NCBI GenBank assembly: GCA_002399235.1
Contig: DHDH01000001.1
Span: forward strand, 97,366-161,365
DNA from: Firmicutes bacterium UBA4881
Lineage (GTDB): Bacteria > Bacillota > DTU065
Direction of reading: 5' to 3'
Length of the DNA stretch: 64,000 nucleotides
The notes beneath the pieces are model-generated. The model was not told the DNA's origin. It searched no databases and was given only the letters and a program-made list of their open reading frames with translations. Of this stretch, positions 6,616-37,421 are shown one piece after another. Numbering within the stretch: the stretch's first letter is position 1; each line of letters opens with the position of its first letter. The position numbers and the translations under genes are program-made.

Positions 6616-7939
6616 GAATCTTGCTGATAAGCTGCAAAACACTTTTAATAACCTTAAACGTCGTGGTAAACTGACCGAAAAAGAAGTGGAGTTAGCTTTA
6701 AAGGAAGTACGCTTAGCGCTGTTAGAAGCTGACGTTAACCACAAGGTTGTCAAATCGTTCACAGAACGAGTTAAAAACCGGGCGATAGGTGAAGAGGTTC
6801 TAAAAAGCCTAACACCGGCTCAGCAGGTTGTTAAAATTGTCTATGACGAATTAACCAGTCTTATGGGTGGCTCGGCAGCCCAATTAAATCTATCTTATAG
6901 TCCTTCTATTATCATGATGGTCGGTCTACAGGGTGCAGGTAAAACCACAACAGCAGGTAAATTAGCCCGTACCATTAAAGAAAAGGGACGTAGACCATTA
7001 TTAGTTGCTTGCGATGTATATCGTCCTGCTGCTGTTAAACAACTACAGGTTGTAGGAAATCAAATAGGCGTTAATGTGTTTAGCCAAGAAGGACAGAAAC
7101 CTGTTTCGATTGCCCAAGCTGGTATTAAATATGCTAACCAGAATGGCTTTGATGTCATCATTATTGATACAGCTGGTAGACTCCATGTTGATGAAGAATT
7201 AATGCAAGAACTAGTAGATCTAAAAACTAGTTTCAAACCGCAAGAAATTCTTTTTGTAGCTGATGCTATGACTGGCCAAGATGCAGTCAATGTAGCAGCT
7301 AGTTTTAATGAAAGACTAGACATTTCAGGCATTATTCTGACCAAAATGGATGGCGATGCCCGTGGTGGTGCAGCACTTTCTATCCGCGAGGTAGTAGGTA
7401 AACCAATTAAATTTGCCGCCTTTGGTGAGAAGTTAGATGCGTTAGAAATATTTCATCCGGATAGAATGGCTTCGAGAATCCTTGGTATGGGCGATTTAGG
7501 TACTATTTTAGAAAAAGCCCAACAAGCTATTGATGAGAAAGAAGCTGCCCAACTAGTTCAAAAACTTACTACAGATGATTTTAATCTGGAAGACTTTTAT
7601 GAACAGATGCAGCAGATGAAGAAAATGGGGCCTTTAAATCAACTTATGGACATGGTACCTGGAATGAACAAGATGAAAGGCCAAGCTGATTTCAGCGCTG
7701 CTGAAAAAGAGATGAAACAGCTCGAAGCTATTATAAATTCAATGACTCCTAAAGAGAGAAGGCAACCTGATCTTATCGACGCCTCCCGTAAAAAGCGGAT
7801 TGCTAACGGTTCTGGTGCAAGGGTACAGGATGTCAATAGATTGTTAAAACAATTTGGTGAGACCAAAAAGGTAATGAAACAATTTGGTGGTCTGAGCCAA
7901 AAAGGTAAGAAAAAATTTAAAATGCCATTCTTTAATTAA
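6605..7939 (+). CDS. ffh: Signal recognition particle protein Ffh
   Basis: MIFENLADKLQ matches the Ffh N-terminus. GTPase motifs GLQGAGKTTT, DTAGR, TKMDGDARGG are present, as is a Met-rich M domain. The likely start is GTG 6605, not TTG 6596. Confidence 0.95.
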   Translation: MIFENLADKLQNTFNNLKRRGKLTEKEVELALKEVRLALLEADVNHKVVKSFTERVKNRAIGEEVLKSLTPAQQVVKIVYDELTSLMGGSAAQLNLSYSPSIIMMVGLQGAGKTTTAGKLARTIKEKGRRPLLVACDVYRPAAVKQLQVVGNQIGVNVFSQEGQKPVSIAQAGIKYANQNGFDVIIIDTAGRLHVDEELMQELVDLKTSFKPQEILFVADAMTGQDAVNVAASFNERLDISGIILTKMDGDARGGAALSIREVVGKPIKFAAFGEKLDALEIFHPDRMASRILGMGDLGTILEKAQQAIDEKEAAQLVQKLTTDDFNLEDFYEQMQQMKKMGPLNQLMDMVPGMNKMKGQADFSAAEKEMKQLEAIINSMTPKERRQPDLIDASRKKRIANGSGARVQDVNRLLKQFGETKKVMKQFGGLSQKGKKKFKMPFFN

Positions 7940-26349: not shown

Positions 26350-27429
26350 TTAATAACGGTAAATCACAGGATCCCTATTTTGCGAATCCTCTAAAACAGG
26401 GCTTTGAACGAAACGATTATCTTTTAGGAGATTAATCTCTCTAGCCATGGCATATTTAGTGTAAGTGAAGATTTCTTGAACTGTAATTTTGCGATCTTGA
26501 TTGAAATCAGCACTACGGTTAATTAAACCTAGAAGAAAATGCTTAGTAAAAAAGCCTAAGCCGCCATCATTGATGTATTGATAGGAGTTTTGTTCGGCAG
26601 TAGAAGAAGCTAAAACTACATAACCAGAATTTTGCAAAGCTCTAGTGGCAACCTTGCCATCAAAAAGTGAACCAGCGTTACAAGAATCGACAATGAGAGT
26701 AATATCTTTGGTAGGCATAGAGTTAAAGATCTCTTTTAGCTCGGTGTCAGTTAAACAATCAGGATTGGGGTCAGAGTTAGAGAAATTGTAGAGAGCTAAA
26801 AGATCTTGTGTACCATGACCAGAAAAATAAACTACCAGATAATCTTCTGGTTTTAGTTGGTTTTTAATCTTTTGGAATAGCGAAAGGATATTTTCTTTAT
26901 TAGCATCCTCGTCGCGTACGGTGATAACATTGCTAGGACCTTTAGTTAGAAACTCCTCTACAGCAGTTGCATCAGCAGAGTTAAGCGGACTGTAATTAGC
27001 ATAATTACTAACACCAATAATTAGATAATGGGCTTTGCCAACAGGGAAAAAAACTGTGTTTATTACATTAGGTAGGACTTCAACATCATATTGGTAAGGC
27101 GCACTTAACTGTGGAGCTTCCACTGTGATTGTTTGCATTCCTTCTAATAAGCCTTCTAGGAGGAAACAGCCATCTTCTTTAACTAAGGTTGCCTTCTTAG
27201 TTCCGTTAACAGAAACTTTGGCTCCAGAGAGAGGGGCATAACCAAGAGGTATAGCTGAGCTTGGTTTAAGGGTTGTTATTTCCTCTAAACTAGGATAGAG
27301 AATCTCTTCTCTAATGACAATTTTACCAGCGATACTTCCCTTTTTTATATTTTGGATAAGACATCCTGTTAACAATGTACTAAGTAATAATAACCAAACT
27401 AGGGCTAATAACCATTTAGTTTTTTTCAT
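26350..27429 (-). CDS. Caspase-domain (peptidase C14) lipoprotein with C-terminal EF-hand-like loop
   Basis: Lipobox LLTGC, then a beta-sandwich N-domain. The His/Cys dyad sits in YFSGHG and DSCNAG. The C-terminus carries a DFNQDRKITVQE Ca-binding-like loop. Start set at MKKTKW. Confidence 0.75.
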   Translation of the reverse strand: MKKTKWLLALVWLLLLSTLLTGCLIQNIKKGSIAGKIVIREEILYPSLEEITTLKPSSAIPLGYAPLSGAKVSVNGTKKATLVKEDGCFLLEGLLEGMQTITVEAPQLSAPYQYDVEVLPNVINTVFFPVGKAHYLIIGVSNYANYSPLNSADATAVEEFLTKGPSNVITVRDEDANKENILSLFQKIKNQLKPEDYLVVYFSGHGTQDLLALYNFSNSDPNPDCLTDTELKEIFNSMPTKDITLIVDSCNAGSLFDGKVATRALQNSGYVVLASSTAEQNSYQYINDGGLGFFTKHFLLGLINRSADFNQDRKITVQEIFTYTKYAMAREINLLKDNRFVQSPVLEDSQNRDPVIYRY

Positions 27430-28309
27430 ATATATCACCTTTATTAGGTACATAAAGATTTAGTTTTTCGGTATGTATTGAGGCAACAAGAGGTGTAACT
27501 CCTCTGATTTCGCCATCACACATCTTAGGATGGGGTTCTAAACTTTCTATTTTAATATTTTTAGCTTTAATAAACTCAACTTTAGGGTGATTAACATGGG
27601 TACCAGAATAAGCTTTAGGAAGTACCTTTAATAGTTCTAAACCTTTGATATCGTTAACAATAACTAGATCTAACATACCATCAGTAGGATCTGCCATGGG
27701 AGCTAAAAATAGACCACCACCTGTGTAAGCGGTATTCATTACATAGGTAAGTACTGATTCGAGTTCGCGAACTTTATCATCAGCTTCAATACATAACTTC
27801 ATCGGTTTTAGAGTCATAGCAGTTTGGATTATAGCCAATAAGATGGCCAAAGGTCCTTTAATTAGGCGATTTTGACGCCGGCTGTTAACTTTAATCATTA
27901 CTTCCGAAGCGAGTCCTAAAGCTACAGAACAGACAAAGAGACCATCAGCTTCAAGGCCTAGATCAAGAGATATAGTCTTTCCTGAGACGATCGATTGTAA
28001 GCTCTCAAGACCAAAAGGTATCTGTAAAGAACGAGCTAGGTCATTACCAGTTCCTAATGGTACAATGCAGAGAGGTTTGTTTTTAGGCATACCACAGACA
28101 ACTTCGTTAATGGTACCATCGCCTCCAACGGCAATAATGCCATCATAGTCGACTGCATCTGCTGCTAGGGAAGAAGCGTGCCCAGGTTCTTTAGTTAAAT
28201 ATATTTCGTAAGGGATTTTTAATTCATCTAACTCCTGTTTTAACATGGGTAGAGCAGCTTTGGTCCGCCCTCTCCCAGCAACAGGATTGGCAATTACTTT
28301 ATAAGTCAT
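27416..28309 (-). CDS. Diacylglycerol/lipid kinase family protein (YegS/DagK-like)
   Basis: NPVAGRGR and AVGGDGTINEV motifs of the DAGK catalytic domain. It overlaps the caspase gene start, suggesting an operon. Confidence 0.85.
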   Translation of the reverse strand: MTYKVIANPVAGRGRTKAALPMLKQELDELKIPYEIYLTKEPGHASSLAADAVDYDGIIAVGGDGTINEVVCGMPKNKPLCIVPLGTGNDLARSLQIPFGLESLQSIVSGKTISLDLGLEADGLFVCSVALGLASEVMIKVNSRRQNRLIKGPLAILLAIIQTAMTLKPMKLCIEADDKVRELESVLTYVMNTAYTGGGLFLAPMADPTDGMLDLVIVNDIKGLELLKVLPKAYSGTHVNHPKVEFIKAKNIKIESLEPHPKMCDGEIRGVTPLVASIHTEKLNLYVPNKGDIYEKN

Positions 28310-28412
28310 TTTTTTGCCTCACTTTATATCTTGGTATATTTGAAATGATTCGCTTGTTAGATGCTGGTTCCTCCTGTAATCTTTAGTACTCTAATGATTA
28401 GAAGAGATAAAA

Positions 28413-28449
28413 GGAGAAAAAAGCAAAGAAGGGTTCAAAGCCCTTCTTT
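28413..28449 (-). terminator. Terminator downstream of the dnaE2-like gene
   Basis: AAAGAAGGG-ttcaaag-CCCTTCTTT hairpin with a T-run on the minus strand. Confidence 0.5.
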
Positions 28450-28455
28450 GTTAGC

Positions 28456-31245
28456 CTAAACTTGCCGGGGAGCACCCAGATAAGTTAAGTCGTTAAGAAG
28501 CAAGTTAGAAGCACGCTCCTTGTCTATTGTTCCAGACACTAAAGCTATACCACCTTCTCTGATAGGTAATTGTTTACCACGAGGGAAGTAGGTGACATCC
28601 ACTTGGCCGGTCTCATCTTCCATAACGAAAAAGACTACGGGGTTACCACTTTTTGTGGGTGGTCGGTGAGGTCTTAGGATTTGTCCGGCAAAGAGGATCG
28701 AGCCTGGGCTTTTTAAAGCTTTTTCTGCGGTAAGAGTAGCGGCAGGTAGTTGAGAACGATAAAACTGCATAGCATGAGCGGTAGGTGAGAGACTTAGGAC
28801 CATCATTTCACGGAGAAAACGCTCCCAGGGAGTGAAATCACCAGGGATAGATTTTGTTCCCCAAAGTTCCCACAACAAGCTCCGACGACTAGAAGAAAAG
28901 CTATCTAGGGCACCTGCTAAAACTAAAGGACGTAGTTGAGCAGGTGATATAAAATCTAATTCAGCAAGAGAATGAAATGGTCTTTTTTGGCTAATTGCTT
29001 TCAGGACAGGATCATGAAGGCCCTTAATAAGATTCAGTCCTAGGCATAGTTCGCCATTTTTCCCCATAGTAGCAAGTGGTGATAAATTAATATTTAGAGG
29101 GATAACCTTTACGCCACAACGCTTAGCTTCCCATAGCACCGATTGCGGAGGATAATAGCCAAGTGGCTGATTATTAAGCAGGGCGCCAAAGAATTCAGCA
29201 GGATAGTGACAGCGTAGGTAGGCTGTTTTGTAGGCTGTTTGAGCAAAGGAGGCTGAATGGGCTTCACATAGACCATAACCGGCAAAACTTTGTAAGAGAT
29301 CAAAAACAGCTTCAGCAGTTTCAGAAGAGGTACCTCTGTCGAGAGCTCTTGCTAAAAAGAGATCTCGGAATTCTTTTAACTCAACTTCACGTTTCTTTTG
29401 TGTCAAGGCTTTGCGCAACCGATCAGACTCTCCGGGCGTAAAGCCACCAAGAGCAGTAGCAATCTGGATGACCTGTTCTTGAAAGACAATTAGCCCATGG
29501 GTTTTCTCTAGATACGGTTTTAATTCTTCGTCTAGATAAGTTATTTTTTCTTCCTTACGTTGACGTTTAATAAAAGGTTCAACCATATTGCCTTTAATAG
29601 GGCCGGGACGGATTAAGGCTACACTAGAGACAATATCGCTAAAGTTTTGGGGTTTGATTCGTTGTTGTAAACTTCTTTGTGCAGGGCTCTCTATTTGGAA
29701 TACACCGAGTGTTTTTCCAGAGGAGATCATCTCGTAAGTAGCCTTGTCGTCAGCTTTAACAGGTAAGTCCATCTCAGCTAAGGCGCCTAAGGTTCGCAAA
29801 GATAAAAGGTCTAGTTTTACTAAACCAACCTCTTCCACATCATCTTTATCTAAGGATATGATAGTTCTACCGGTAACTGCCTTAATAAGGGGTACGTGAG
29901 AAGAGAGGGATTTAGAAGAGATAACTAGCCCACTCGAGTGGGTAGCGATATGTCGAGGTAGACCATAAAAACTCTCAATAAAACTAGGTATAAGTTTATC
30001 AGGAAGGCCAATGCGAAGAAGATCGTTTTTAGCCATATCTTCTCTGTAACAGTGAAAACTACATATACCAGCTACAAATTCATGGCCATATTTGTGTTCT
30101 AGATAATCCCAGAGTTCGTTGCGTTTTTGCCAATCAAAATCGATATCAATATCAGGTTGCTGACTACGTTCGATACTAAGAAAACGTTCAAAGACTAAAT
30201 TATGAGCTACAGGATCGACTTGAGTCAGATCTAAGCAATAGCTAACTAAAGAACCAGCAGCAGAACCACGGCCTTGATAGCAGATCTGCCGTTTTTTAGC
30301 CACCGACACTAGATCATAGACAATAAGAAAATAACCAGAATAGCCTAGAGTTGCGATAACCTGCAATTCATGTTGTAGACGAGCAGGAGCTTGTTTATTA
30401 GTGGGGGAATACTTTCTGGCTAAACCTTGCCAGGCAATACTGGCTAATTTTTCATCGGCATCAGGCCAAACAGGTAGTAGGTTAGGTGGTCGTAGAGGTT
30501 CTACTTCACACATTTCTGCCAGAGCATAAGCTCCTTCTAAGGCTTTAGGGAAAGAACCAAAGCGTTCTTTGAGTTCTGATTCTGTGCAGAGATAACTAGC
30601 ATTGTTAAAGGATCTTTCTGGATTAACATCATTTAGTTTAATACCTAATCGAACACAGCTTAAAGCGTCGTGAACGGGGAATTTTTCCGGGTAGGCATAA
30701 TGCACATCCACAGTAGCAACAGTAGGTAGAGAGAGTCTAGTCGCTATCTCTGTAAGGGCTGAGAAAATCTCTATAGTACGAGGTAGTTGGTCATGACTTA
30801 GTTCAAGAAAAAAGCGCCCGGGCCAAAAGCGAGCCCAAACTTGGGCCTGCTCTAAAGCTTCTCTATAGCGTTTTTGCAGTATTAATCTTTGTAAACGCCC
30901 ATTACGACAACCAGAGAGGATAAAAATGCCATCACCGGTGGGCAGATTATTATCCCCTTTGTGGGTTGAATTGAGGTAACGACAGATTTTTTCGTACCCC
31001 AGATAATTTTCGGCTAAAACAGTTAGGTGGCTACCATCAAATAAAGTAAACTCACAGCCTATAATAGGTTTAATACCAGCCTCTAGAGCTAAACGTTGGA
31101 ACTCCCAAACCCCTGAGACATTGTTATGATCAGTTAGAGCCATAGCCTTATAACCAAGTTCACTACCTCGAGTAATTAACTCGCGAGGGAGACTAGCACC
31201 ATCTAAAAGCGAGTACGCGGAATGGGTGTGTAAAGAAACTGTCAT
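28456..31245 (-). CDS. Error-prone DNA polymerase III alpha-like protein (DnaE2/ImuC-like)
   Basis: N-terminal PHP domain (LHTHSAYSLLDGA), a polymerase palm and HhH region. At 929 aa it is shorter than a replicative DnaE. It is adjacent to a Y-family-like gene and a LexA box. Confidence 0.8.
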   Translation of the reverse strand: MTVSLHTHSAYSLLDGASLPRELITRGSELGYKAMALTDHNNVSGVWEFQRLALEAGIKPIIGCEFTLFDGSHLTVLAENYLGYEKICRYLNSTHKGDNNLPTGDGIFILSGCRNGRLQRLILQKRYREALEQAQVWARFWPGRFFLELSHDQLPRTIEIFSALTEIATRLSLPTVATVDVHYAYPEKFPVHDALSCVRLGIKLNDVNPERSFNNASYLCTESELKERFGSFPKALEGAYALAEMCEVEPLRPPNLLPVWPDADEKLASIAWQGLARKYSPTNKQAPARLQHELQVIATLGYSGYFLIVYDLVSVAKKRQICYQGRGSAAGSLVSYCLDLTQVDPVAHNLVFERFLSIERSQQPDIDIDFDWQKRNELWDYLEHKYGHEFVAGICSFHCYREDMAKNDLLRIGLPDKLIPSFIESFYGLPRHIATHSSGLVISSKSLSSHVPLIKAVTGRTIISLDKDDVEEVGLVKLDLLSLRTLGALAEMDLPVKADDKATYEMISSGKTLGVFQIESPAQRSLQQRIKPQNFSDIVSSVALIRPGPIKGNMVEPFIKRQRKEEKITYLDEELKPYLEKTHGLIVFQEQVIQIATALGGFTPGESDRLRKALTQKKREVELKEFRDLFLARALDRGTSSETAEAVFDLLQSFAGYGLCEAHSASFAQTAYKTAYLRCHYPAEFFGALLNNQPLGYYPPQSVLWEAKRCGVKVIPLNINLSPLATMGKNGELCLGLNLIKGLHDPVLKAISQKRPFHSLAELDFISPAQLRPLVLAGALDSFSSSRRSLLWELWGTKSIPGDFTPWERFLREMMVLSLSPTAHAMQFYRSQLPAATLTAEKALKSPGSILFAGQILRPHRPPTKSGNPVVFFVMEDETGQVDVTYFPRGKQLPIREGGIALVSGTIDKERASNLLLNDLTYLGAPRQV

Positions 31246-31269
31246 AGCATTTTCTGTGTTTTTCCCTCC

Positions 31270-31515
31270 TTAGTCAAAACTTTGATAGAGAAGGGTTTCA
31301 CCCTGGGGAGTAATAGCAATTTCAAAGAGTCCTTGTGGTTTGGTGGCTACAAGCACAAACTCCAACATGGGCTCGCCTAACCACCAAGCACCACTTTCCA
31401 ACCAGCGGTCAAGTTTCTTACAGATAGTATACTCGACCCCATGAAAGACAAAACTATCCTGCTCAATTGTTATGGGTAATTGCCAAATATGGGTCAAATT
31501 CAAACCCCCAAACAA
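31270..31515 (-). CDS. Possible frameshifted C-terminal segment of the ImuB-like gene
   Basis: 81 aa ORF overlapping the upstream ORF by 53 nt. A G5 run lies in the overlap. No independent RBS or ATG is present. Confidence 0.3.
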   Translation of the reverse strand: MFGGLNLTHIWQLPITIEQDSFVFHGVEYTICKKLDRWLESGAWWLGEPMLEFVLVATKPQGLFEIAITPQGETLLYQSFD

Positions 31516-32305
31516 AGTTAGCTTGCCGAACTAGCTCTCGGCGGTTAGGAGTCAGGCCTAGTTTTAAACCACTTTCTTGGGCTAAAAGACTATAAAGAGC
31601 CTGAGGTAGATTAAAGTCAAAAAGATTACCTTGTTTGACAGGGGGTGAATCCCAGCTAATAACGACGAGTGTTTGCCAAGGCCAAAGACTTTTAAGCGCT
31701 CTTAGCAAAGAGTGCTTGCCAAATTTCTCTGGCCTAAAGTCAAGGCTTTTTTCTTCGGTTAAAAACCACAACTGAGCTATCTTGGCTGGTAATTGTTGTT
31801 GTAATTTAGCAAAAGTCTTTTCCAAAGATTCACTAGAAAAACGGCCTTCCCAAAAAGGGGGAGTGGCATTAATTGTTTCACTATACTCGCCACGACAATA
31901 AGAGAAGATCTTTTCCCCTAACTCCCCTAGTCTAAGTCTTAAGGCCTCAAGGGGAATTTGTTGTAAAGAACCTATGGTTTTAAAGCCCGCTTGAAAAAAT
32001 TCTGTCAAAAGTGGCGGGGGAACTGGCCAAAGACAATCGACTGGCAATTTGAAAAAAGCTTCGTTATTTTTTAACCAAAAAAGACCGGAACGTGCCTGAT
32101 AGATAGCGATCGCTTTAGCGATTAATAGATTGTCTGCGACAGCTAGGCAACTATTGAACTGTTTGCCCCATTCTAGAAGTTCTTCTTTGCTAGTGGGTCC
32201 AAGCTCAAGAGCATAGCCCTTAGATTCTTCCCTAAATCGTGGTGTCTTACAATAGACTAGGTAACGTTTTTCGAGACTAGGGGTTGAAAGAAGGTAAGCA
32301 AACAT
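31463..32305 (-). CDS. ImuB-like truncated Y-family polymerase protein (thumb/little-finger only)
   Basis: LPVDCLWPVPPPLLTEFFQAGFKTIGSLQQIPLEALRLRLGE resembles the DinB/ImuB HhH thumb. There is no palm with catalytic acids, and an upstream stop bounds the ORF. Confidence 0.55.
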   Translation of the reverse strand: MFAYLLSTPSLEKRYLVYCKTPRFREESKGYALELGPTSKEELLEWGKQFNSCLAVADNLLIAKAIAIYQARSGLFWLKNNEAFFKLPVDCLWPVPPPLLTEFFQAGFKTIGSLQQIPLEALRLRLGELGEKIFSYCRGEYSETINATPPFWEGRFSSESLEKTFAKLQQQLPAKIAQLWFLTEEKSLDFRPEKFGKHSLLRALKSLWPWQTLVVISWDSPPVKQGNLFDFNLPQALYSLLAQESGLKLGLTPNRRELVRQANFVWGFEFDPYLAITHNN

Positions 32306-32493
32306 AAACTTACAAGTTAAACTACATCCAGGCCATGGGCTTTAGCTGAATGCAGGATAACCTAGGCCTCCCTTCGTTTACAAAAATATAATTGAATCTT
32401 CGCGACCGAAGTCACGAGTTTTTTGGCTCAATATCATTAAACTTAATGCTTAGGTTATAGTTCTAAGTATGTGGACAAAAAATACTCACCCAC

Positions 32494-32506
32494 CGAACAC
32501 ATGTTC
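32494..32506. promoter_or_regulatory. Candidate LexA (Cheo/SOS) box
   Basis: CGAACACATGTTC matches the Firmicute consensus CGAAC-N4-GTTCG at 12 of 14 positions. It lies in the divergent intergenic region between the imuB-like gene and the DJ-1 gene. Confidence 0.5.
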
Positions 32507-32648
32507 TATATAGATTATATGCTGTCACCTAATAAAGTTCAACTCTTTCTAAGTGGTAAATATTGCTTTAAGGGTTGTTTTTAGGGGAAGGAAAGCAGAG
32601 CTTGTGCCAAGAATTAGAAAAACGAGCATACACTAGGAGGGGATTTAG

Positions 32649-33155
32649 ATGGCAAAGATAGCCATGGTAATTGCGAGAAAAGATTTTCGTGACGAGGAGT
32701 ATCTTCACCCCAAGGAAGAGTTTATGCAAAATGGGCATGAAGTAATTACTGCATCATCGTGGACCAAGGAGTGCACGGGACGCTTTGGTGCAATAGTTAA
32801 ACCAGATATTAATCTAGCCGAGTTATTGCCTGAGGACTTTGATGCTTTAGTGTTTGTCGGTGGTGGCGGAGCAAGTGAATATTTTGATTCTCCGATAGCC
32901 CAAGGTTTAGCACGTAAGGCGTATCGTGAAGGCAAAGTAGTTGCTGCTATATGTATTGCACCTCTGATTTTGAGTAGATCAGGTCTTTTACAAGGTAAAA
33001 AAGCTACTGTCTATCCAGATGGCCAAGAAGAATTGGTTCGTGGTGGTGCGGTTTATACAGGTAATATTGTTGAGACAGATGGACGTATTATTACAGGCAA
33101 CGGCCCGGCGGCAGCAAGAGATTTTGCCCAGGCTGTCATGGTGCAAATAAAGTAG
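32649..33155 (+). CDS. DJ-1/PfpI family protein
   Basis: Class I glutamine amidotransferase-like fold with the nucleophile elbow AAICIAP. Confidence 0.85.
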   Translation: MAKIAMVIARKDFRDEEYLHPKEEFMQNGHEVITASSWTKECTGRFGAIVKPDINLAELLPEDFDALVFVGGGGASEYFDSPIAQGLARKAYREGKVVAAICIAPLILSRSGLLQGKKATVYPDGQEELVRGGAVYTGNIVETDGRIITGNGPAAARDFAQAVMVQIK

Positions 33156-33156
33156 G

Positions 33157-34104
33157 ATGCATCTTGTTTTAATCACAGGTAGCATGGGATCAGGAAAAAC
33201 TTTAGTACTAAAAGAACTTTTTCTTAAACTTTTAAATAAGTACAAAACAGTCTTAATGGTACATGAAGCTGGATGTATCGGTATGGATGCAGCTTTTTTA
33301 GCACAAAACAATATTCCTGCACTTAACTATTCTTATTGTAAGGTTGCAGAAGATCCAGGGCAGACATTTATGTACAACCTCGAGAATGCTAGACAAAAAT
33401 TCAATCCAGATATTGTTTGTGTGGAAATAACTGGCAATGTAGCTACACCTGTAGTTATTAAAGAAGCTAAAAAGAGAGATTCCAACATACAGATACAAAC
33501 TGTTATCTATGTTCTCGATGCTACCAATTTTTTAAGTGAATATAGGAAAAAAAGAGAGTTCATCCAACTGCAAATAACCTGGTCTGATTATGTAATTATC
33601 AATAAAGAAGAACGGTTAAATTTGCACCAGAAAGAATCAATTAGAAAAATAATCAAGACCATTAATCCTGTTGCAACTGTTTTAGAGACTAGGTATGGGA
33701 TATTAACACGGGATTTGTTAGCCAAAATCGCTATCGACCTTCAATCTCCAAAGGGGTCTATTATTTATAGTACAGAAAATAATCAACTGGAAACTAAAAA
33801 ATCTCTTTGGACAAAAGGAACTGAAAACAAGATTCGCTGTGGCTTTTTATTTACCGAGGGATCAACAGATCCGAAAAAGATTACAAATTTCTTCTTACGG
33901 CATAAAGATAAGATTGTTAGGGCTAAAGGTAGATTTGTTACTGGTTATGGATTGTGTTACCTGCAGCTTAACCAAGGTAGTGTTGATTATCAGATTTTTG
34001 GGGTAGAAAAATTTTTCCATAATAAGAATATAGCTTCTTTACTGGTTCCTGCGGACTTCCAGGCTGATCTAAAACTGGAATTTATGGACTGCTTTGAGCG
34101 TTAA
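33157..34104 (+). CDS. CobW/COG0523-like G3E P-loop NTPase, lacking CxCC
   Basis: Walker A GSMGSGKT. The overall COG0523 layout is kept (VHEAG.IGMD, DIVCVEITGNVATP, NKEERL). The canonical CxCC metal site is replaced by SYCKV. Confidence 0.55.
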   Translation: MHLVLITGSMGSGKTLVLKELFLKLLNKYKTVLMVHEAGCIGMDAAFLAQNNIPALNYSYCKVAEDPGQTFMYNLENARQKFNPDIVCVEITGNVATPVVIKEAKKRDSNIQIQTVIYVLDATNFLSEYRKKREFIQLQITWSDYVIINKEERLNLHQKESIRKIIKTINPVATVLETRYGILTRDLLAKIAIDLQSPKGSIIYSTENNQLETKKSLWTKGTENKIRCGFLFTEGSTDPKKITNFFLRHKDKIVRAKGRFVTGYGLCYLQLNQGSVDYQIFGVEKFFHNKNIASLLVPADFQADLKLEFMDCFER

Positions 34105-34182
34105 ATGAGGCTTAAAATGCTAAGAAAATGAATACAATGGCATTGTAGTAAACCTCATTTGCAATAGGAAGGAGCAACTGTT

Positions 34183-35244
34183 TTGCATAGAAGGACCGGT
34201 CTAATAGCATCTATTTGGTTTCTGGTTACCATTCTATTTGTTAGTGGCCTGGTTTTTTCGGTGGGACCGAAAGAAGGAAAGGTGGCATCTAAAGAGCCAG
34301 CTCAAGTTATGATTAAGTTATATGTGTACGGGACAGGTCTTTTAGAGTTAGATCTAGAGGAATATTTAGTAGGTGTCGTGGCTGCAGAACTTCCAGCTTC
34401 TTTTGGCATCGAAGCCCATAAAGCTCAGGCAGTAGCCGCACGTACTTACGTCGTAAAAAGGTTAGAAAAGATTAGAAAAAACGGTTCTCCTTATCCCGAG
34501 GGAGCAGATATAACAAATCTTCCCCAAGAAGGCCAAGCTTGGATTTCCGAGGCTGAGCGCTTAGAACGTTGGCAGTCTTCGTATTCTTATAACCAGAAAA
34601 AGATTCAAGAAGCGGTCCTAGCTACTAAAAGTCAAGTTTTGACCTATAACGGACAATTAATCGAAGCATTATATTGTTCTACAGCAGGCCCACATACAGA
34701 AGATGCCCAAGAGGTATTTCGCATTCAATTGCCTTATTTAAAAGCTCAACCTAATCCCTTTGATAGTCATTCGCCTCGTTATAAAGATGCCAAAACGTTT
34801 AGTATTGCCGAACTAGGGAAGTCTTTAGGTGTAAAACTCAAAGAGAAAGAACTTCTTATGGCATTAAGGTCTCCTCAGGGACCGGAAGTAATACCAGTAG
34901 CTAGCTTACTAGACCCTTGGCTTAACCCTGATAAAGGAGCAAATTCTTTAAAAATAATAGCTCGTAACCGTTCAGGAAGGGTAAGTCAAGTTGCAGTAGG
35001 AGGGCGTATATTTTCAGGAACCGAGATACGTTCCAAACTAGGCCTAAGATCAACAAACTTTACCTATCAAATTAGTAGTGACGGGAAGAAAATAACCTTT
35101 TATACTACAGGGTATGGTCACGGTGTTGGGATGTCTCAATACGGAGCAGACGGGATGGCTAATAAAGGTTATAACTACAAAGAAATATTAGCTTTTTATT
35201 ATCCCGGTACAAATTTAGTTTCACTTGGCTTAAGAAGGGAATAA
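34183..35244 (+). CDS. spoIID: SpoIID/LytB domain protein (stage II sporulation protein D-like)
   Basis: N-terminal TM segment and SpoIID domain motifs (VVAAELP, AHKAQAVAARTY, ALYCSTAGPHTED). Confidence 0.8.
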   Translation: MHRRTGLIASIWFLVTILFVSGLVFSVGPKEGKVASKEPAQVMIKLYVYGTGLLELDLEEYLVGVVAAELPASFGIEAHKAQAVAARTYVVKRLEKIRKNGSPYPEGADITNLPQEGQAWISEAERLERWQSSYSYNQKKIQEAVLATKSQVLTYNGQLIEALYCSTAGPHTEDAQEVFRIQLPYLKAQPNPFDSHSPRYKDAKTFSIAELGKSLGVKLKEKELLMALRSPQGPEVIPVASLLDPWLNPDKGANSLKIIARNRSGRVSQVAVGGRIFSGTEIRSKLGLRSTNFTYQISSDGKKITFYTTGYGHGVGMSQYGADGMANKGYNYKEILAFYYPGTNLVSLGLRRE

Positions 35245-35330
35245 TAAAGATCTAAAGGAGTAGATGCACTAATGTTGAATTTTGTACGAAGAGCATCTAC
35301 TCCATACCAATTGGAAGGGGGAGGTTTTAT

Positions 35331-35561
35331 TTGGCTCTAAAACTAAGTAAAAATGCACAAACTGTTTTAGAAAAACGTTATCTGATGAAAAAAGATGGAC
35401 AAGTAGTGGAGACCCCGGAGGACTTATTTAAACGTGTAGCAGCTAATATTGCAGAAGCAGACAAACTCTACGATGAGAATGCAGATGTGGAAGCTAAAGC
35501 TGCTAGGTTTTACGAAGTGATGACTGAATTGAAATTCTTACCTAATAGTCCCACTCTGATG
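35331..35561 (+). CDS. nrdJ: Class II (B12-dependent) ribonucleotide reductase NrdJ, exon 1
   Basis: NAQTVLEKRYL...FLPNSPTLM is the NrdJ N-terminus. The reading frame breaks exactly where GTGCG begins. TTG start with a GGAGG RBS. Confidence 0.85.
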
Positions 35562-36827
35562 GTGCGCCAAGATAGTTAGCAGGTAGCGCCGGGCAAGCCG
35601 GTACGAAACTCGGGACAGGTTTCGTTAGAGATCTGCTTACCCATTAGGGGACAACAGCATGCACGATCTCTAGGTACCACAAGGCCAAAGCTGGATTGCT
35701 TGAACTCTAGTTCTACTGGATCAAGTGGGGATCTGCTAAGGCATCTGGCTGTAAAGAAGAGTATTCATCGATTCTTCTTTAGTCCCGAAGCCAGACAGGG
35801 TATCCTAAACTTAATAAGTTTTCGATACTAAAAGAACGAACGGAGAGCCTAAATGGTACAATTTATCTGACTAGCGAACTTGGGATAGGTTTTTGTCAAA
35901 AAACCTACGGAGCTCTCATAGTAGTCAAGGCGGTAACACCGTCCTAAAGGCGAAGGGGAGCAGGCCAGTTGGTAATAAAGAAGCGGAGGTATGCGTAATG
36001 CAAGATAGCCTCGTTGTCTTGAATTGCCTAGAAAAGAGTTCTGCAAACAAAGTTCTTCAGAGAGTCTATAGACAACTATTTAACTTAAATTTCTATGGAA
36101 CAAAAGGTCAGGAGATTGTAGCAGCATTAAAAAAAGAAAGTTATCGTCAACTACCTACTGCGCAATTAAACGAACTAAAAGCAGTAGTACAAAAGATTTT
36201 ATCAGTTGTCTTTGCTGCTAAATTTGCTGAAACAGGTATTTATAAAGAGTTAAAAGGACAGTGTTTACCAGCTAGCTTAGTAGAAAAACCTGAAGAGATA
36301 CTGGTAAAACGTATCGCTGATGGACGCTGGTGGCAGCTGTATAATTTTTTACGTCCCTGGCGTATGTATCTGCCCCAAGAAAAGTTACTTATTTGGGACG
36401 AAAACTTTTATAGATGGCTACCAGATGATGGAACTATTTATAAGATAGATCTAGCAGGGTTTACTTGGCAACTAGGTAAGATAACACTGCAAAGCTCTTT
36501 TAAAACCACACTACTTAAACCATACCTGCGGTATGGGAAACCTTTACATCGAAGCGGTCTCCTTAACCTACCAGAAAAGGTAATTATTGCCACTTACAAG
36601 GCGGAAGAGTCTCGGTTTCGGCAGATTTTATCTGTTCTAACCGAACCTAAGAAAGAAGCTGAGATGCTCTATCTTTTACGGCAGAGTCTCTTAAAAACCT
36701 TAGCTTGTAAATATAGAACATCGACACGTGATATTGAAGAACGTTTTGAACTTTTTTGACACTGGCTGGAGAGCCGTATGCTTCGAAAGATGCACGTGCG
36801 GTTCGGAGGGGGGGAAACCTACCCTAC
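35562..36827 (+). mobile_element. Group II intron 1 in nrdJ, encodes a maturase-only protein
   Basis: 5' GUGCG at 35562. Domain V GAGCCGTATGCTTCGAAAGATGCACGTGCGGTTCG at 36771-36805. A G-rich domain VI with a bulged A and a 3' CUAC. The flanking exons join in frame as ...SPTLM|NAGREL.... Confidence 0.85.
35998..36759 (+). CDS. Intron-encoded maturase-like protein (domain X only, no RT domain)
   Basis: Carried in intron 1. The C-terminus [21 protein letters not shown] matches the maturase domain X motif (as in MatK, ...SLARTLARKHKST). No YADD or other RT blocks are present. ATG 35998 has a GGAGG RBS. Confidence 0.6.
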
Positions 36828-37421
36828 AATGCAGGTAGAGAATTACAACAGTTATCAGCATGTTTTGTGTTACCCATTGATGATTCAATGGAAAGTATCT
36901 TTGAAAGTGTAAAAAACGCTGCCTTAATTCATAAAAGTGGTGGTGGAACAGGCTTTGCCTTTTCACGTATCAGACCCGCCAGTGACAGTGTAAAAAGCAC
37001 TGGTGGTGTTGCCTCAGGACCGATTTCCTTTATGAAAGTATTCAATGCTAGCACCGAGGTAATCAAACAAGGAGGAGTGAGAAGAGGCGCTAATATGGGT
37101 ATCTTAAGGGTCGATCACCCAGATATCCTTGAATTTATTACATGCAAAAAAGATAATACGGAATTAACTAACTTCAACATTTCCGTAGGAGTTACGGAAG
37201 CTTTTATGAAAGCTGTTGAAGAAGATACCGATTATGATCTTATTAATCCTAAAAATAAAAAAGCTGTAGCTAAATTAAAAGCCAGAGATGTTTTTGCGCT
37301 TATGGTAGAAATGGCCTGGCTTAATGGAGAACCAGGTATTGTCTTTTTAGATAGGATCAATAATGAAAATCCTACACCTTCGCTTGGCGAAATCGAATCT
37401 ACCAATCCATGTGGTGAGCAG
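36828..37421 (+). CDS. nrdJ: NrdJ, exon 2
   Basis: [21 protein letters not shown]...STNPCGEQ are conserved RNR core motifs. The frame is broken again by GTGCG at 37422. Confidence 0.85.

Follow-up and report, generated by a model that had tools for sequence, protein, structure and literature searches.

What is encoded by a cassette that looks like a translesion mutasome and lies in a Firmicute? The canonical ImuA-ImuB-DnaE2 (ImuC) cassettes are those of Proteobacteria and Actinobacteria, for example of M. tuberculosis, P. aeruginosa and Caulobacter. The cassette considered here is located on the minus strand of a 64,000-nucleotide (64-kb) stretch of Firmicutes bacterium UBA4881 (contig DHDH01000001.1, positions 97,366 to 161,365), which was analyzed as a whole and which we call the window. 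A preliminary description, made from the sequence alone, had seen a 929-residue paralogue of DnaE next to a Y-family-like gene and had recognized in them, together with a LexA box, the logic of a translesion cassette, in which a DnaE2 paralogue works with a catalytically dead Y-family partner. The large open reading frame (ORF), with its PHP and Pol III-alpha domains, is indeed present at 28456-31245 (minus strand) with the Y-family-like gene upstream of it, and the functional reading holds. Our analysis shows a real cassette of three genes, not two, and we consider it very probable that the region is a LexA-repressed, damage-inducible operon, encoding a putative multisubunit translesion or mutagenic polymerase of the DnaE2X-iPolY-ImuB-C-RecA type, where iPolY denotes an inactive homologue of Y-family polymerases.

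A three-gene cassette of a published type

The three genes are co-oriented and tightly packed, and form one compact unit in the minus-strand order promoter, palindrome, leader, ORF-A, ORF-B, ORF-C, terminator. ORF-A (31463-32305) encodes an inactive, miniaturized Y-family polymerase homologue of 280 residues, ORF-B (31270-31515) a standalone ImuB-C domain protein (DUF6504, PF20114), and ORF-C (28456-31245) a C-family DNA polymerase of 929 residues that is of DnaE2 type, and DnaE2X-like, by its Pfam domains and its position in a tree. The preliminary description had reported ORF-A and ORF-C and had missed ORF-B between them. Directly 3′ of the ORF-C stop codon, an intrinsic terminator is predicted on the same strand (28424-28450), with a 10-bp stem containing 5 GC pairs followed by a T-run.

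The type example of the DnaE2X-iPolY-ImuB-C-RecA putative mutasome is that of the Firmicute Kyrpidia tusciae (PMC6511836, NAR 2019). In systems of this type ImuB-C is as a rule a standalone protein, and RecA presumably stands in for ImuA (PMC6511836); imuA is absent genome-wide in this type (PMC6511836; PMC12926913). The name stems from a 2026 NAR survey (PMC12926913), in which the type is viewed as a split ImuB, possibly ancestral to the canonical system, and is reported to occur with all three types of replication system, PolC+DnaE3 included. The preliminary description had thought such a cassette unusual for a Firmicute; given Kyrpidia, where the type was first shown, and the genome-wide lack of imuA in the type, it is not.

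The window cassette is a member of this type by its testable defining features. Like that of Kyrpidia, it belongs to a Firmicute host and has an inactive PolY, a standalone ImuB-C and a DnaE2 in the same order, no imuA, and an iPolY C-terminus composed of a clamp motif, a possible RecA-NT-like segment and an RR(E/R) tail. It differs in that lexA lies outside the operon of the window, so that control would act via the predicted operator only. With the canonical cassette, for which the Agrobacterium pTi locus (L017) served as the reference example, it has the ImuB-C domain (DUF6504) in common and probably also the principle that an error-prone C-family polymerase is brought in, under LexA control, by an inactive Y-family scaffold bearing a clamp motif. 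It falls outside the canonical ImuA-ImuB-ImuC definition, however, because imuA is missing, ImuB is unfused and the polymerase is not a DnaE2A. As the preliminary description had noted, there is no ImuA/RecA-like gene, neither in the operon nor in the window as a whole: a six-frame motif scan of the 64 kb (RecA Walker-A, LexA S24) found no RecA/ImuA-like or LexA gene. Nor does a RecA/ImuA-like gene adjoin the cassette in loci L001-L016; the reference loci L017, L019 and L022 do contain imuA. ImuB-C is separate in the window, in contrast to its fusion in the canonical protein, and every homologue of ORF-A has kept the stop codon.

A predicted LexA-type operator over the promoter

The top promoter-like site of the scanned stretch (28000-33000) is a predicted sigma-70-type promoter at 32514-32542 on the minus strand, with 10 of 12 matches: TTGAAC (−35), a 17-nt spacer and TATAAT (−10). 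Starting 6 nt 3′ of its −10 hexamer, and therefore overlapping the predicted transcription start, is a palindrome (32494-32507) that reads CGAACACATGTTCT on the plus and AGAACATGTGTTCG on the minus strand and that we predict to be a LexA operator of the Cheo or SOS-box type. The preliminary description had placed a LexA-type box in this divergent intergenic region, which the operon shares with a DJ-1/PfpI gene, and we find it there. CGAACACATGTTCT agrees with nine of the ten specified bases of CGAAC-N4-GTTCG and is the only site in the window that matches this pattern with at most one mismatch; by chance, 0.54 such boxes are expected per 64 kb and about 0.002 per promoter region of 240 nt. With the Cheo box of the B. 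subtilis-type LexA (DinR), the predicted site shares GAAC-N4-GTTC, the AT-rich centre and the location over the promoter or transcription start; it differs at one flanking base, T for G.

Comparison with orthologous loci yields a phylogenetic footprint. The TTGxxx-17-TATAAT layout is kept 5′ of the operons in L001-L012, and at the equivalent position past the −10 hexamer there is a palindrome reading CAAACATATGTTCG in L001-4, L011 and L012, AGAACATATGTTCG in L005-7, L008 and L010, and AGAACGTATGTTCG in L009. The distance from TATAAT to the box is 6-10 nt, within intergenic sequence that has otherwise diverged, and the position of the box is kept in every orthologous locus examined. Three of four distant Firmicute systems also have one or two boxes upstream (Alicyclobacillus macrosporangiidus L014, L015, L016), and in Thermanaeromonas, as on a Thermus plasmid, the lexA gene itself adjoins the cassette. 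The GAAC-N4-GTTC palindrome thus lies over the promoter and is conserved in the orthologous promoters, as expected for a member of the LexA/SOS regulon. A second, perfect GAAC-N4-GTTC palindrome, GAACTAGAGTTC, occurs around 35702-35713 (plus strand), in an intron region just past the first exon of a ribonucleotide reductase (RNR) gene, and is conserved in L001-L007; rather than a LexA site, it is probably part of the intron's sequence or structure.

Between box and ORF-A, the window has a long 5′ leader of 188 nt (32306-32493, minus strand), which, by comparison with the orthologous loci, carries a lineage-specific insertion of about 190 nt. The insertion is also found in L023 and L024, which are of the same species; in all other orthologous loci, box and start codon are 10-25 nt apart. 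The ancestral Shine-Dalgarno sequence and TTG start (GGGTGAGTATTTTTTG) are still visible right after the box, where they now open an ORF of seven codons, and no Shine-Dalgarno sequence is obvious before the ATG that replaces this start for ORF-A. When 28300-36900 was searched against Rfam, the leader gave no match, its central 30 nt have no copy elsewhere in the window and its folding is unexceptional (z = −1.6).

ORF-A, a reduced and inactive Y-family homologue

Sequence matches of ORF-A are confined to the end of the palm and the thumb of Y-family polymerases (PF21999; DinB models at about positions 140-320). A profile search against 1.84 billion representatives found one full-length 50%-identity cluster of the ORF-A type and two short fragments; the other matches were distant Y-family proteins, mostly of 350-430 residues, to whose positions 140-310, approximately, residues 50-205 of ORF-A align. 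An AlphaFold2 model built on an alignment of eight sequences was discarded (pLDDT 50.9), but repeating the prediction with 69 sequences gave a confident model (pLDDT 81.2). In this model, ORF-A has a Y-family fold with a vestigial palm core (residues 1-77), a thumb with helix-hairpin-helix (HhH) elements (∼85-140) and a shortened little finger (∼150-220). The preliminary description had seen no catalytic palm in this gene; with the vestigial core of the model, ORF-A is not devoid of a palm. The fingers domain and all catalytic carboxylates are missing. Strand β1 reads FAYLL, without an acidic residue, and the DE strand has TPRFREESKGYALELG in place of TPxVEPxSxDEAFLD, the gapless alignment putting an invariant G30-Y31 in the place of D-E. 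ORF-A is thus a Y-family homologue with a disrupted active site, adjacent to the polymerase gene, as the definition of iPolY has it. With hhalign, the expected regions of A1 and A2 were aligned to a single Agrobacterium ImuB at probabilities of 8-26%, which we regard as supportive only.

The C-terminal part carries three short elements. A conserved pentapeptide of the β-clamp-binding type, Q225-x-x-L228-F229, aligns with QLxLF of the Y-family consensus. It is followed at about residues 233-250 by a RecA-NT-like segment (QALYSLLAQESGLKLGL), a helix and then an LxLG strand-like stretch with low pLDDT, which, short as it is, matches ALEAVRRQVGPGCIRPAL of the related iPolY P0137 and ‘AL..IEKQFGKGSIMKLG’ of RecA when aligned by eye. 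The last element is an invariant RRE tail (255-257).

In the five modelled examples of the type, iPolY has 393-429 residues and DnaE2X 1022-1095 (PMC12926913). ORF-A is about 120 residues shorter, owing to the absent fingers domain, the vestigial palm and the shortened little finger. The preliminary description had taken it for a severely truncated ImuB, and one may ask whether the whole cassette is a decaying, non-functional remnant, with ORF-A a truncated or frameshifted imuB pseudogene. Besides the length of ORF-A, the frameshift-like overlap of ORF-A and ORF-B in different frames beside a G5 run would fit decay, as would the leader insertion in front of an ATG that lacks a Shine-Dalgarno sequence. 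However, the homologues of ORF-A all have 275-280 residues and the same ends, at 53-97% identity and with about 70 invariant residues, and dN/dS, calculated from the L005 and L008 orthologues, is 0.18 for ORF-A and 0.05 for ORF-B; more distant pairs have reached or almost reached saturation at synonymous sites. Moreover, ORF-B has its own start, and a spacer in front of it, in other lineages, and the ORF-A model folds confidently. Decay is therefore very unlikely: because the homologues are uniformly 275-280 residues long and under purifying selection, the short ORF-A is native, neither a decay product nor a frameshift error. The functions of ImuB are split over two genes, for an inactive PolY and a standalone ImuB-C.

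Related loci and genomic context

The loci examined for synteny are of metagenomic origin, from biogas and fermentation sources, and include metagenome-assembled genomes (MAGs) named ‘Clostridia bacterium DTU065’ and ‘Bacillota bacterium’. The order iPolY-ImuB-C-DnaE2 is conserved in L001-L012 and recurs in Thermanaeromonas, Alicyclobacillus, other Firmicute loci and a Thermus plasmid. More distant relatives of ORF-C, at 40-43% identity and with about 1016-1100 residues, are in several cases annotated as ‘error-prone DNA polymerase’; in all four that we looked up, the polymerase gene follows an ImuB-C ORF of 77-84 residues and a divergent PolY-like ORF of 177-444 residues. The 280-residue iPolY is a small lineage-specific variant, which a two-peptide pattern scan located in at least 4 of 185,579 species genomes.

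Two of these loci deserve description in their own right. In the cultured Firmicute Thermanaeromonas toyohensis ToBE (L013 4268-8135, LT838272.1), the iPolY that partners ImuB-C and DnaE2 has only 177 residues, made up of the little finger, a QLAIF clamp motif, a RecA-NT-like segment and an SRRE tail, and lexA is divergently adjacent. The Thermus brockianus plasmid pTbrSNM4-1b (L021 1-4485) encodes an S24 peptidase (LexA-like), a hypothetical protein of 410 residues, a 50-residue ORF and an annotated ‘dnaE’ (1014 residues) with a degenerate PHP motif; this looks like another lexA-iPolY-ImuB-C-DnaE2 module.

The preliminary description had assigned the cassette to an accessory segment, and a recently acquired accessory or mobile island would be in keeping with its place within a block of five minus-strand genes, the window being otherwise plus-strand, and with its slightly higher G+C of 0.42 against about 0.38. 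Yet orientation and composition are features shared with relatives, and so are the neighbours. In the L001-L007 lineages, the three genes are flanked on one side by DJ-1/PfpI, SpoIID and RNR, and on the other by DAGK/YegS and a caspase-like protein, beyond which L001-L004 have HslU; L008 has flagellar genes upstream instead. The neighbours on both flanks are kept even in genomes where ORF-A is only 53-61% identical, and no integrase, transposase or other mobility gene was found among the ORFs scanned against Pfam in the stretch from 23.5 to 37.4 kb around the cassette. With operon and neighbours recurring together in related genomes, the locus is syntenic in the lineage, which leaves the accessory segment unsupported and makes a recent island very improbable.

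ORF-C, a DnaE2-type polymerase

ORF-C comprises PHP, Pol III-alpha (palm), fingers, HHH_6 ((HhH)2) and OB domains. Its catalytic Asp triad, equivalent to E. coli D401/D403/D555, is intact, as is the HxH motif of the PHP domain. It has a 38-residue deletion at about E. coli residues 460-497 and lacks the linker that bears the internal clamp motif in E. coli; because it ends at about E. coli position 1079, it also lacks the tau-binding domain. With the deletion and the loss of the clamp-motif linker, it is about 100 residues shorter than the modelled DnaE2X proteins.

Could ORF-C be a replicative DnaE, either DnaE3 or DnaE1-like, preceded by two unrelated small genes? Some observations would allow it. 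ORF-C shows about the same identity to E. coli DnaE1 (32%) and to DnaE2A (30-32%), its PHP HxH motif is intact, and with its best NCBIfam model, NF004225 ‘error-prone DNA polymerase’, it scores 689 bits, under the cut-off of 939. Still, that model is the one for the error-prone subfamily, and ORF-C is far under the cut-off of every other DnaE equivalog model listed. Its N-terminal 365 residues score 274-304 bits against DnaE2X-type proteins (281 for Kyrpidia, 274 for Alicyclobacillus, both at 41-42% identity), 192 against E. coli DnaE1 and 139-164 against DnaE2A, which also separates it from the canonical polymerases. A neighbour-joining tree with one DnaE1 and no DnaE3 reference has the window clade as the sister of the Firmicute DnaE2X-like group; the DnaE3 alternative was addressed via NCBIfam scores, operon context and literature only. 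The gene always follows ImuB-C and a dead PolY beneath a LexA box, the clamp and tau elements of a replicative DnaE3 or DnaE1 are missing from the protein, which reaches the cut-off of no equivalog model for either, and the published type coexists with PolC+DnaE3 (PMC12926913). We conclude that a replicative role for ORF-C is most improbable, and take it to be a C-family polymerase with an intact active site, as required of DnaE2X.

ORF-B and its separation from ORF-A

Counted from TTG 31515, ORF-B has 81 residues; a start at TTG 31497 (75 residues), behind a GGGGG Shine-Dalgarno-like run, is more likely. All eight orthologous or related small ORFs match PF20114 (DUF6504; best E = 1e-11), which maps to the C-terminal 70 residues or so of the canonical ImuB of Agrobacterium and Komagataeibacter, and the ImuB-C of Kyrpidia tusciae (ADG05749, sequence from the supplement of PMC12926913) shares 40% identity with ORF-B (E = 6e-14). 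A word-indexed homology search with the 81-residue sequence returned its own cluster only, and our comparisons are based on orthologues derived from the loci.

In the window, the start of ORF-B lies within the 3′ end of ORF-A, in the +1 frame, yet the standalone ImuB-C has a gene to itself in every lineage. That of the L001 lineage is preceded by GGAGG and starts with an ATG, and in L005-L010 a spacer of about 105-130 nt with stop codons keeps the two ORFs apart, their relative frame varying. A poly-A run in this spacer (∼6850-6870) is of unequal length in L005 and L006, whose contigs are nearly identical. The difference shifts the relative frame and affects neither ORF, indicating that ORF-A and ORF-B are translated independently. 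The idea that the two ORFs arose through a frameshift or sequencing error was examined by a homology search with a conceptual A+B fusion, which found proteins of 275-280 residues only; it was rejected, as homologues stop at the ORF-A stop and other lineages have the spacer.

That programmed +1 ribosomal frameshifting joins ORF-A and ORF-B into a canonical-like fused ImuB, as their +1 overlap in the window and L001 lineages might suggest, is hardly credible in view of the stop codons and the poly-A-dependent frame of the L005-L010 spacer, the GGAGG and ATG of ORF-B in L001 and the rule of a standalone ImuB-C in this type (PMC6511836).

Proposed mechanism

A mechanism for the LexA-controlled DnaE2X-iPolY-ImuB-C operon can be proposed from published AlphaFold models and from the genetics of canonical ImuA-ImuB-DnaE2 systems. 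LexA would repress the operon by occluding the transcription start; upon DNA damage, RecA* would induce self-cleavage of LexA and the operon would be transcribed. ORF-A would act as a scaffold only, contacting the β clamp via QxxLF, RecA via the RecA-NT-like segment and DnaE2 via the thumb, with ORF-B as a bridge from the ORF-A tail, with its conserved RRE, to DnaE2 at its PHP domain. DnaE2 could then carry out error-prone synthesis across lesions, giving rise to damage-induced mutations, and RecA may fill the place that ImuA has in the systems of Proteobacteria and Actinobacteria.

Several points weigh against this interpretation. For the type as a whole, it is a prediction that the proteins form a complex, that RecA takes part and that the activity is mutagenic, and recA, lexA, polC and dnaE3 are all outside the 64-kb window. 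The RecA-NT-like motif of ORF-A is shorter than the one in RecA and comes from an alignment by eye. On the side of the polymerase, there are the NF004225 score below cut-off, the even identity to DnaE1 and DnaE2A and the tree that has no DnaE3 reference. Finally, with an insertion of about 190 nt and an ATG that has no obvious Shine-Dalgarno sequence, the expression of ORF-A may be altered.

Neighbouring genes

Directly 3′ of the operon terminator and co-oriented with the operon (26350-28309, minus strand) are genes for a caspase-like protein (Peptidase_C14) that has a hydrophobic segment at its N-terminus and a domain resembling CarboxypepD_reg, and for a lipid kinase of the DAGK/YegS family; the pairing of the two is conserved in related genomes.

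On the other side, the RNR gene (35331-39770, plus strand) consists of three coding pieces (35331-35579, 36756-37439 and 38355-39770) that are split by two group II introns, with Rfam Intron_gpII domain V/VI matches at 36769-36827 (63 bits) and 38257-38351 (67 bits). Within the first intron is an ORF of 288 residues (35893-36759) that gives only a weak maturase match and lacks a reverse-transcriptase domain, while a long ORF is absent from the second. The relatives L005-L007 have their RNR gene split in this way, too.

Implications

The novelty of the cassette lies in its degree of reduction only, the type itself being already published, and the current picture of bacterial translesion synthesis is unchanged. 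Drastic reduction of the scaffold, too, is already known for a canonical ImuB: the ‘very short ImuB1’ of Thermogutta terrifontis has 334 residues including ImuB-C and retains thumb, little finger and ImuB-C (PMC12926913). The Thermogutta protein and the Thermanaeromonas iPolY resemble ORF-A as naturally miniaturized scaffolds in which the little finger, the clamp motif and a segment resembling RecA-NT are retained, along with ImuB-C as a partner. They differ from it in that the former is a fused ImuB working with ImuA and DnaE2A, and the latter has lost palm and thumb, whereas ORF-A keeps a palm stub and the thumb.

It is possible, though we advance it tentatively and think it less than likely, that the mutasome scaffold is undergoing recurrent, independent miniaturization in anaerobic Firmicutes, to 280 residues here and 177 in Thermanaeromonas. 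If so, its only indispensable parts would be the little finger, QxxLF, the RecA-NT-like segment and the RRE tail, to which ImuB-C presumably attaches; the contact between thumb and DnaE2 that published AlphaFold models predict would be dispensable, and the natural minimal versions would define a minimal adaptor from clamp to DnaE2. The naturally minimized scaffold could in any case guide truncation experiments on the tethering of DnaE2 to the clamp. For the class of putative SOS mutasomes built from DnaE2X, iPolY and ImuB-C, the operon is a clean example of predicted control by a conserved Cheo box, and with it an uncultured lineage of Clostridia from biogas and fermentation environments joins that class.

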